This document shows, in pieces, positions 46,996 through 50,074 of a stretch of 64,000 nucleotides of DNA. The notes under the pieces are model-generated. The model saw nothing but the letters and a program-made list of their open reading frames with translations, was not told where the DNA came from and did no database searches. The DNA comes from a phage. Positions within the stretch are counted from its first letter, which is position 1, and each line of letters begins with the position of its first letter. The DNA is taken from NCBI GenBank assembly GCA_024571205.1, contig GCA_024571205.1_4523.1, one strand, 5' to 3'. The translations under genes and the position numbers were made by a program.

Positions 46996-47002
46996 GGTAA
47001 AC

Positions 47003-47272
47003 ATGGCTAAGAAAGAAGCAGTCGAATTTAATCAAGATGTACACGGTGACGAACTGGCTAAACTAGTCAAGGAAGCTTCCGATAACAAACTTAAAATCTC
47101 TGGCTACAACGAACTGATTAAAGACATTCGTACTCGTGCTAAAGAAGAGCTTGGCGTCGATGGAAAAATGTTTAATCGTCTGTTGGCTCTTTATCATAAA
47201 GATGCTCGTGACCAATTTGAAGCTGAAAACGAAGAGGTGGTAGAGCTTTATGACACTGTTTTCACTAAGTGA
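47003..47272 (+). CDS. dsbA: DsbA double-stranded DNA binding protein
   Basis: 89 aa; MAKKEAVEF..KISGYNELIKDIRTRAKEELGVDGKMFNRLLALYHKD matches recalled T4 DsbA. Confidence 0.8.
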   Translation: MAKKEAVEFNQDVHGDELAKLVKEASDNKLKISGYNELIKDIRTRAKEELGVDGKMFNRLLALYHKDARDQFEAENEEVVELYDTVFTK

Positions 47273-47588
47273 TATTAAACCGGCCGATGAGGCCGATCTC
47301 TCTGAAAAAGAGTTAGCTATTAAACATGATAAAGACGATATTGCTAAATTGCTTGATCGCCAAGAAAATGGGTTCATTATCGAATCTATGGTCGAACAAT
47401 TCGGTATGTCTTATTTAGAAGCAACAACTGCTTTCTTGGAAGAGAACTCCATCCCCGAAACTCAGTTCGCTAAATTTATTCCTACAGGAATTGTTGAAAA
47501 AATTACAAGCGAAGCAATTGACGAAAACATGCTTCGCCCATCAGTTGCTCGTGGCGAAAAAACTAATACGTTAGATTTCTTATTATGA
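47250..47588 (+). CDS. 33: gp33 late transcription co-activator
   Basis: 112 aa; C-terminal IPETQFAKFIPTGIVEKITSEAIDENMLRPSVARGEK. Confidence 0.8.
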   Translation: MTLFSLSDIKPADEADLSEKELAIKHDKDDIAKLLDRQENGFIIESMVEQFGMSYLEATTAFLEENSIPETQFAKFIPTGIVEKITSEAIDENMLRPSVARGEKTNTLDFLL

Positions 47589-48238
47589 TTAAAATACGCA
47601 TGCCTCCTGACGGAGAACGTTATATTAACGGAAAATCGGTATACAAACTATACTTGATGTGCAAACAACATTTTAATGGTCGGTATGACGTAATCAAATA
47701 TAACTGGTGCATGCGTGTTTCGGATAATGCGTATCAAAAACGCCGAGATAAATATTTCTTTGAGAAACTAGCAGAGAAATATAAGTTAAAGGAACTCACC
47801 TTGATATTCATCAGTAACTTAGTTGCTAACCAAGACGCGTGGATTGGTGAGATATCAGACGCTGATGCATTAGTTTTCTATAGGGAATATATTGGACGTC
47901 TCAAACAAGCCAAGGAGACGTTTGCTGAAGATGTACGTAACATCTACTATTTCAGTAAGAAAGTGGAAGTTAGTGCGCTTCAAGAGATATTTGATTATAA
48001 TAATAAAGTTCAGTCGAGCTACATATTTAAATTGCTACAAAGCAATATAATTTCATTTGAAACCTTCTTGTTGTTGGATTCATTCTTGAATATTATAGAT
48101 AAGCACGACGAACTCACCGACAATTTAGTCTGGCAAAATTATTCTACCAAATTAAAGGCATATCGAAAAATACTTCAAATCGATGGAAATGCTGCTAAGA
48201 AATTGTTCATAGAAACAATCAAATCATGTAAGTATTAA
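47585..48238 (+). CDS. 59: gp59 helicase loader
   Basis: 217 aa; MIKIRMPPDGERYINGKSVYKLY..; closely matches recalled T4 gp59. Confidence 0.9.
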   Translation: MIKIRMPPDGERYINGKSVYKLYLMCKQHFNGRYDVIKYNWCMRVSDNAYQKRRDKYFFEKLAEKYKLKELTLIFISNLVANQDAWIGEISDADALVFYREYIGRLKQAKETFAEDVRNIYYFSKKVEVSALQEIFDYNNKVQSSYIFKLLQSNIISFETFLLLDSFLNIIDKHDELTDNLVWQNYSTKLKAYRKILQIDGNAAKKLFIETIKSCKY

Positions 48239-48267
48239 GCTTTATTTCTTGTGTGTTAAAATTACTT

Positions 48268-48275
48268 TATAAATA
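48268..48275 (+). promoter_or_regulatory. late promoter TATAAATA upstream of gene 32
   Basis: Exact TATAAATA in the gene 32 leader. Confidence 0.5.
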
Positions 48276-48282
48276 AATCATA

Positions 48283-48354
48283 CCAGCTACGAGGTATAAG
48301 TGTCGTAGCAACCAACTGTAAATAAATTAAATAATCTAAATAAAGGTAAATATA
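48283..48354 (+). promoter_or_regulatory. gene 32 translational operator candidate (stem-loop plus AU-rich unstructured tract)
   Basis: GCTACGA-ggtataagtg-TCGTAGC at 48286-48309, then AU-rich aaataaattaaataatctaaataaa before the ATG. Confidence 0.45.
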
Positions 48355-49257
48355 ATGTTTAAACGTAAATCTACTGCTGACCTCGCTGCTCAAATGGCTA
48401 AACTGAACGGTAACAAAGGTTTCTCTTCAGAAGATAAAGGCGAATGGAAGCTGAAGCTAGATGCATCAGGTAATGGTCAAGCGGTAATTCGTTTCTTGCC
48501 AGCAAAAACTGATGATGCACTACCATTTGCAATTCTTGTTAACCACGGTTTCAAGAAAAATGGTAAATGGTATATTGAAAATTGCTCTTCTACACATGGT
48601 GATTACGACTCTTGTCCTGTATGTCAGTACATTAGTAAAAATGACCTGTACAATACCAACAAAACTGAATATTCTCAACTGAAACGTAAAACTTCTTATT
48701 GGGCTAATATTCTGGTTGTTAAAGACCCTCAAGCTCCAGATAACGAAGGTAAAGTATTTAAATATCGTTTCGGTAAAAAGATTTGGGACAAAATCAATGC
48801 AATGATTGCAGTTGATACCGAAATGGGTGAAACTCCAGTTGATGTTACTTGTCCGTTTGAAGGTGCTAACTTCGTTCTGAAAGCTAAGCAGGTTTCTGGT
48901 TTTAGCAACTATGACGAATCTAAATTCTTGGGTCAATCTGAAATTCCTCGTATTAATGACGAAGCATTCCAGAAAGAACTATACGACCAGATGGTAGACC
49001 TTACTACTTTGACGGCTAAAGACCAGTTCAAATCTTTTGAAAAATTAAATGAATCTTTCGCTAAGGTTCTTGGTACTGCCGCTCTTGGTGGTGCAGCAGC
49101 CGCAGCAGCTTCTGTTGCAGATAAAGTTGCTTCTGACCTTGACGATTTTGATAAAGACATGGAAGCCTTTAGTTCTGCAAAAACTGAAGATGACTTCATG
49201 AGCTCTACCTCATCCTCTGATGATGGCGACCTCGATGACCTGTTAGCTGGTCTATAA
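48355..49257 (+). CDS. 32: gp32 single-stranded DNA binding protein
   Basis: 300 aa; zinc-binding [11 protein letters not shown], acidic C-terminus; closely matches T4 gp32. Confidence 0.95.
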
Positions 49258-49263
49258 TAAATC

Positions 49264-49286
49264 GGGAGACTTCGGTCTCCCTTTTG
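49264..49286 (+). terminator. intrinsic terminator (UUCG tetraloop)
   Basis: GGGAGACttcgGTCTCCC followed by TTTT. Confidence 0.8.
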
Positions 49287-49312
49287 AGTATCTGTAAATT
49301 ACTGAAAAAGTT

Positions 49313-49341
49313 GTTTACTTCTTCCATGGATGTGTTAGTAT
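49313..49341 (+). promoter_or_regulatory. T4-early-type promoter
   Basis: GTTTAC 49313, 17-nt spacer, tagtat; leader atagacctatcaa. Confidence 0.6.
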
Positions 49342-49370
49342 AGACCTATCAACAACATGAGGAAATCAAA

Positions 49371-49763
49371 ATGGAAATCGGAAAATCTTATATCATTAAC
49401 CCTTTATTTAAAGACGACTTTGTTCAAGAAGCACCACATAATAACGCTAAGATGTTAAAATTGATTGAACTCCATGGGCCTAGTTTTGTTGTAAACGGAA
49501 TGGAACCTGATTATGATAGCGATACGCCAAACGTAGTAAGTGTAACTATGGAAGATGGTACTGTATGTTCTGCCGGTGGTGAAATTGGAACTTATTTTGA
49601 GATTTATCCTGACGAGTTCAAATACTTTACTGAGGTAGATTTAGTAAAGCCTCAAACTACTAACGAAGGTATAACTTTAGGTGTAACAAAAATCCATTGT
49701 ATCGTAGATGAAACCAACGTCGACGAAATCATCGAACTTTTGCAAAAAACTTTTAAAAAGTAG
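49371..49763 (+). CDS. hypothetical protein, 130 aa
   Basis: ORF after a promoter; RBS TGAGGAAA. Confidence 0.6.
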   Translation: MEIGKSYIINPLFKDDFVQEAPHNNAKMLKLIELHGPSFVVNGMEPDYDSDTPNVVSVTMEDGTVCSAGGEIGTYFEIYPDEFKYFTEVDLVKPQTTNEGITLGVTKIHCIVDETNVDEIIELLQKTFKK

Positions 49764-49792
49764 TGTACAATCAGATAGGGTTATGTTATAGT
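49764..49792 (+). promoter_or_regulatory. T4-early-type promoter (GTGTAC variant) with inverted repeat
   Basis: gtgtac 49764, 17-nt spacer, tatagt; arms ataggg / ccctat. Confidence 0.5.
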
Positions 49793-49825
49793 AGCCCTAT
49801 CAAATCAAAAGTGAAGGAGAATAAA

Positions 49826-50074
49826 ATGAGATTGCAACGTCAGAGCATCAAAGATTCTGAAGTTAGAGGTAAATGGTACTTCAACATCGTCGGTAAAGAC
49901 GCTGAACTCCTTGAACAAGCTGAAGAAGCTTTACGTGAAATGGGTTGGAACGAAGAATGTGATGGATGTCCACTCTATGAAGATGGTGAAAGTGCAGGAT
50001 TCTGGATTTGCCACTCTGACGTTGAAATGTTCAAAGCTGATTGGAAGGTTGTTAAGAAAAATCTGAGGAAATAA
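49826..50074 (+). CDS. hypothetical protein, 82 aa
   Basis: Start trimmed to ATG 49826 after RBS AAGGAGAA. Confidence 0.55.
   Translation: MRLQRQSIKDSEVRGKWYFNIVGKDAELLEQAEEALREMGWNEECDGCPLYEDGESAGFWICHSDVEMFKADWKVVKKNLRK

Follow-up and report, generated by a model that had tools for sequence, protein, structure and literature searches.

The gene 32 leader of an RB69-like T-even phage matches the autogenous translational operator of RB69

The closest described counterpart of the element considered here is the gene 32 leader of phage RB69, which structure probing, gp32 footprints and repression assays showed to be an autogenous translational operator (Borjac-Natour, Petrov & Karam 2004, Virol J 1:4; PMC535899). 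In that study, the RB69 segment from A(-45) to A(-1) is hypersensitive to DMS and DEPC and insensitive to RNase V1, and is thus single-stranded, the putative pseudoknot segment is sensitive to RNase V1, and the failure of U(-20) and G(-10) to react with DEPC and T1 led the authors to propose a weak hairpin between A(-21) and U(-8). They further report that RB69 gp32 strongly protects the RNA from U(-14) to G(-61), the latter being the 5' limit of the footprint, that the purified protein represses translation of its own mRNA in vitro, and that deletion of pseudoknot elements, or missense mutation of gp32, leads to approximately 4-fold higher expression (PMC535899). Work on the T4 operator came earlier (McPheeters, Stormo & Gold 1988; Shamoo et al. 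1993; both as cited in PMC535899), and the operators of T4, T2 and RB69, together with the processing of T4 gene 32 mRNA by RNase E at -71, are summarised by Uzan & Miller 2010 (PMC3014915). For T2/T6 there is an NMR structure of the gene 32 pseudoknot, 2TPK (Holland et al. 1999, cited in PMC3014915), and the two stems are described in that review as coaxially stacked.

The sequence analysed here, a 64,000-nucleotide stretch of phage DNA (hereafter the window; GenBank assembly GCA_024571205.1), belongs to an RB69-like Mosigvirus. Over the gene 59-32 region its identity is 99.7% with Escherichia phage PECP20 and 97-98% with other Mosigvirus phages; with RB69 it falls to 93.7%, and with T4-type phages to about 78-83%. 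The genes for gp59 and gp33 lie upstream of gene 32 and Frd.2 lies downstream, as in T4 and RB69, and this 33-59-32 order is the T-even block. RB69 has the same order, without the segG insert that in T4 is found between genes 59 and 32, where TATAAATA stands at -158 (leader positions are counted from the A of the gene 32 start codon as +1, window position 48355). From about 48251 to the AUG, a span comprising the late promoter, the pseudoknot, the A+U-rich tract and the Shine-Dalgarno sequence, the leader is identical to that of RB69 (AY301284); three substitutions, at 48248, 48249 and 48251, lie upstream of the operator. The individual positions named in the RB69 study (A-45, C-42, G-61, U-20, G-10, U-14, U-8 and A-21) are occupied by the same bases in the window.

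Because it is identical, base for base, to the RB69 operator that has been tested experimentally, we regard the leader as real but ordinary: the element is already known, its exact sequence having been characterised in RB69 in 2004. We put at about 0.93 the probability that it is the autogenous translational operator of gene 32 in a T-even phage of the RB69 type. Translational autoregulation by gp32, which a first-pass annotation had proposed from the letters of the sequence, is supported by the RB69-identical leader, by a second helix in the folded element and by the alignment with T4. The late promoter, the pseudoknot, the operator tract, gene 32 and its terminator can now be annotated with confidence in the window (Table 1).

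Table 1. Features of the gene 32 locus, in window coordinates.
Feature	Position	Strand	Basis or remark
gp59	47585-48238		upstream of gene 32
T4-type late promoter TATAAATA (promoter positions -13 to -6)	48268-48275	+	sequence; invariant in six Mosigvirus; same motif annotated as late promoter in phage SA35RD
Pseudoknot stem 1 (S1), 5' arm AUACC	48280-48284	+	pairs with 48293-48297; architecture scan and covariation
Loop 1, single A	48285	+	invariant A in 8/8 leaders
Pseudoknot stem 2 (S2), 5' arm GCUACGA	48286-48292	+	pairs with 48303-48309; covariation
S1, 3' arm GGUAU	48293-48297	+	directly after S2 5' arm, no junction base; G(-61) = 48294
Loop 2 AAGUG	48298-48302	+	length 3 to 7 nt across lineages
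S2, 3' arm UCGUAGC	48303-48309	+	covariation
A+U-rich tract with UAAA/UUAAA repeats, A(-45) to A(-1)	48310-48354	+	composition; RB69 probing of identical segment
AACUGU motif, immediately 3' of pseudoknot	48314-48319	+	conserved ACUGU core; invariant in Mosigvirus
Weak 4-bp hairpin AUCU/AGGU, A(-21) to U(-8), including the Shine-Dalgarno GG	48334-48347	+	centroid fold; same hairpin proposed for RB69
Shine-Dalgarno AAAGG	48342-48346	+	8 nt before AUG
Gene 32 (gp32, 300 aa)	48355-49257	+	Pfam gp32 PF08804, E 1e-60; ATG at 48355
Intrinsic terminator after gene 32 (GGGAGAC-UUCG-GUCUCCC, then UUUU)	49264-49289	+	terminator scan (49264-49281); annotated terminator in ATK47 and SA35RD

The repressor encoded by the window is intact. 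Over the aligned regions it shares 93% identity with RB69 gp32 and 83% with T4 gp32; residues 1-75 are the same as in RB69, and the approximately 20 differing positions fall mostly within residues 190-236, with T76N, W168F and V177A in the core domain. The parts associated with cooperative binding are present, namely the N-terminal KRKST, the Zn ligands H64, C77, C87 and C90, and the acidic C-terminus. The roles of the KRKST basic motif, of the Zn-binding core and of the acidic C-terminal domain are well established for gp32. Gene 32 is very probably both the repressor gene and the gene that is regulated, and we infer, from the identity with RB69 and the homology with T4, that the gp32 of the window phage would act on this leader as RB69 gp32 does on its own. 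When in excess over the available single-stranded DNA, gp32 would nucleate at the pseudoknot and then spread cooperatively in the 3' direction along the UAAA tract until the Shine-Dalgarno sequence and the AUG are covered, so that ribosome binding would be blocked and free gp32 would be held at a set level.

The 7-bp stem-loop that had been singled out in the first-pass annotation is present, GCTACGA pairing with TCGTAGC across a 10-nt loop, but it is not a separate hairpin, because it constitutes S2 of an H-type pseudoknot located at -75 to -46. Pairing compatible with a pseudoknot was looked for and found between AUACC and GGUAU, the latter lying inside the loop of the reported stem, and the architecture scan gives the element as two stems and two loops with the composition listed in Table 1. 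Nearest-neighbour energies, with the helices taken singly, are approximately -4.1 kcal/mol for S1 and -8.6 kcal/mol for S2. The T2/T6 pseudoknot is likewise of the H-type and resembles that of the window in having a single nucleotide in loop 1 and 7 bp in stem 2, whereas the T2-type leader L013 has UGACC/GGUCA as S1 and a loop 2 of 7 nt (UACAUCG) as compared with 5 nt in the window. As for T4, the window leader aligns with its gene 32 operator through the pseudoknot, the tract and the start codon, and the architecture is the same in both, S1 5' arm, a single A, S2 5' arm, S1 3' arm, loop 2 and S2 3' arm, followed by the UUAAA/UAAA tract. The T4 pseudoknot differs from that of the window at 4 of 30 positions, and three of the substitutions fall in the helices with pairing kept: from window to T4, a C-G pair in S2 becomes U-A and an A-U pair in S1 becomes G.U. 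The T4 S1 has 4 bp, including the G.U pair (UGCC/GGUA), as against 5 bp in the window, and the T4 tract is 7 nt shorter.

Downstream of the pseudoknot, the A+U-rich run with UUAAA and AUAAA that had been described before the start codon is there, with one copy of the former and two of the latter. Its 45 nt are 84% A+U and contain six UAAA and five UAAAU, and the density of these repeats sets the tract apart from the rest of the phage DNA: on both strands of the 64 kb, at least five TAAA per 45 nt are found only at the gene 32 tract, the mean being 0.52. The mean predicted unpaired probability is 0.66 in the tract versus 0.37 in the pseudoknot segment. We propose that the tract is the track along which gp32 binds cooperatively over the ribosome-binding site. 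RNA of the RB69 type differs here from that of T4 by an extra weak hairpin over the Shine-Dalgarno sequence.

Several other leaders proved in the architecture scan to have the same layout, 61-75 nt upstream of the AUG: those of T4-type phages (L009, L010), T2-type phages (L013, L014), Klebsiella phage Marfa (L017), a relative (L032), Serratia phage CHI14 (L021), Escherichia phage EcS1 (L022, assigned from a partial match) and Erwinia phage Cronus (L023). Covariation was evaluated in eight distinct leaders (T4, T2-type, RB69-type, Marfa, a Marfa-like contig, CHI14, EcS1 and Cronus). Standard pairs occupy 100% of the 90 pair cells, a figure that is in part selected because the eight leaders were chosen by a scan for that very architecture. 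Changes on both sides of a pair, which are compensatory, occur in 7 of the 12 pairs (3 of 5 in S1 and 4 of 7 in S2), and the covariation score of 0.61 compares with 0.22 in shuffles, none of 500 of which reached 0.61. When the partners were slid by 1-3 columns, only 20-50% of the cells were paired and at most one double change was seen. Outside the helices, the eight leaders have in common the unpaired bases CCAG, the A of loop 1 and CA on the 3' flank; these common bases, taken with the slid-partner control, argue that the leaders are orthologous. The computational support for the pseudoknot thereby extends to Marfa, CHI14, EcS1 and Cronus; a broader study among T4 relatives was described as still needed in the 2010 review (PMC3014915). 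Two further leaders (L030, L031), both without ACTGT, carry an S2-like helix (GGUGUAG/CUACAUC) with a 21-nt loop and a candidate S1 that differs (UGAC/GUCA or AAUGA/UCAUU), which may represent a divergent pseudoknot geometry.

At shorter evolutionary distance, TATAAATA and the 30-nt pseudoknot are invariant across six Mosigvirus genomes, in which 18% of third codon positions are variable in gene 59 and 28% in gene 32. The tract varies at 7 of its 45 positions in the same genomes and is A+U-rich throughout. The density of UAAA, the conservation of TATAAATA and the pseudoknot, and the covariation of both stems across genera are beyond chance. Statistics on the single sequence are weak: TATAAATA occurs 7 times in the window, with 7.1 expected, and there are 98 perfect 7-bp stems with loops of 3-12 nt as against about 54 in shuffles, so that, with counts near or modestly above chance, neither motif is evidence alone. 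The minimum free energy of the 100-nt leader (z = -0.86) is uninformative, because pseudoknots are beyond the reach of the folding tool and the greater part of the leader is expected to lack structure. A scan of 47000-50000 against Rfam 15, at E-values up to 10, returned four chance matches, none of them on the leader; Rfam 15 has no family for the element, and for this reason it gives no independent model score.

The late-type TATAAATA noted by the earlier annotation upstream of gene 32 is indeed in place, and its position relative to the pseudoknot bears on where the RNA starts. In late promoters of the T4 type this motif occupies positions -13 to -6 (PMC1524935), which predicts +1 at 48281 +/-1, the second base of S1. 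The late mRNA would then begin with the pseudoknot, at its 5' edge. In T4, the 5' end that lies beside the pseudoknot results instead from RNase E cleavage at -71, which is 4 nt 5' of S1, and in the T2-type leader TATAAATA is 17 nt upstream of S1 as compared with 4 nt in the window. The distance from TATAAATA to the 5' end of the S1 region is 3-5 nt in the RB69-type leaders and in CHI14, EcS1 and Cronus (L021, L022, L023).

A folded element at the end of a transcript could serve mainly as a stabiliser or processing determinant of the unusually long-lived gene 32 mRNA, with no nucleation site for gp32. Among T4 mRNAs, that of gene 32 has the highest stability, RNase E cleaves all of its T4 species at the -71 site next to S1, and since the late promoter of the window would start the RNA on S1, the pseudoknot would be at the extreme 5' end in both phages. 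Such a role is, however, compatible with that of an operator rather than exclusive of it, and the footprints and deletions speak for gp32 binding: the region protected by RB69 gp32 and by T4 gp32 alike takes in the 3' part of the pseudoknot and extends to G(-61) (PMC535899), and removal of the pseudoknot elements results in the approximately 4-fold derepression mentioned above. We therefore consider it highly improbable that stabilisation or processing is the main role of the element in place of gp32 nucleation; a role in mRNA stability additional to that of the operator is plausible. The reading of the stem-loop as a rho-independent terminator ending gene 59 transcription can be discounted almost entirely, in spite of its location between genes 59 and 32 and of the label 'rho-independent terminator; discovered using WebGeSTer' given to the homologous 34 nt in the SA35RD record, and we reject it because AACCAACUGUAAAU, and no U-run, follows directly 3' of the stem, while the terminator scan finds nothing at the leader stem yet finds the true terminator after gene 32, the covarying S1 helix would be left unexplained, and in T4 the polycistronic transcripts continue into gene 32, with processing at -71 (PMC3014915). 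The annotated segment of SA35RD (OL960577.1 148379-148412; L203 702-735) corresponds to window 48286-48319, that is, to S2 and its flank. Since the stem is without a U-run, this label is probably wrong and covers a mis-annotated gene 32 operator, and it should probably be corrected.

Within the operator, the AACUGU motif immediately 3' of the pseudoknot recurs in nearly every gene 32 leader of enterobacterial T4-like phages. Its ACUGU core is present between -21 and -50 in 24 of 26 distinct gene 32 leaders from enterobacterial T4-like phages (L003-L032), mostly as AACTGT(A/T)AA, and ACTGT occurs 45 times in these 26 x 90 nt, where the background in the window is 0.079 per 90 nt. The leaders devoid of a pseudoknot (L004-L008, L011-12, L015-16, L025) contain three or four copies of ACTGT, spaced 13 and 10 nt apart. 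In these leaders the gene 59 stop abuts gene 32, and the copies lie in three reading frames of the gp59 C-terminus; their presence in different frames suggests that they are under selection at the nucleotide level. In the distant marine-type loci (L033-L082) ACTGT shows no enrichment and stays at background. We found no mention of the motif in the portions of PMC535899 and PMC3014915 that are cited in this work. It is conceivable, if rather unlikely, that the operator holds determinants that have gone unrecognised, with AACUGU(A/U)AA as a sequence-specific cue for gp32 or another factor, and the 5'-terminal pseudoknot as a conserved end state reached by a late start on S1 in the RB69-type phages, CHI14, EcS1 and Cronus and by RNase E cleavage in T4.

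Other signals in the vicinity of the leader can be noted separately. The minus strand has just two, an ORF of 43 aa that starts with TTG (48262-48393) and a weak sigma-70-like match, both of which were set aside, as nothing else backs either. The T4 middle-promoter pattern GCTT(N13-15)TATAAT, taken from the SA35RD record, is matched by GCTT at 48239-42 and, 14 nt further on, TAAAAT at 48257-62, with a predicted start at about 48269; this candidate middle promoter (48239-48262) is kept in 5 of 6 Mosigvirus, and mar005P1 has TAGAAT in its place. A second match to the pattern, annotated in SA35RD, lies inside gene 59 (window 47977-48001). Finally, SA35RD carries a C to T change at 48279 that gives AAAUUAUACC where the window and RB69 have AAAUCAUACC, and which regenerates the AAUUAU context that surrounds the -71 site of RNase E cleavage in T4 (GAAUUAUGCC).
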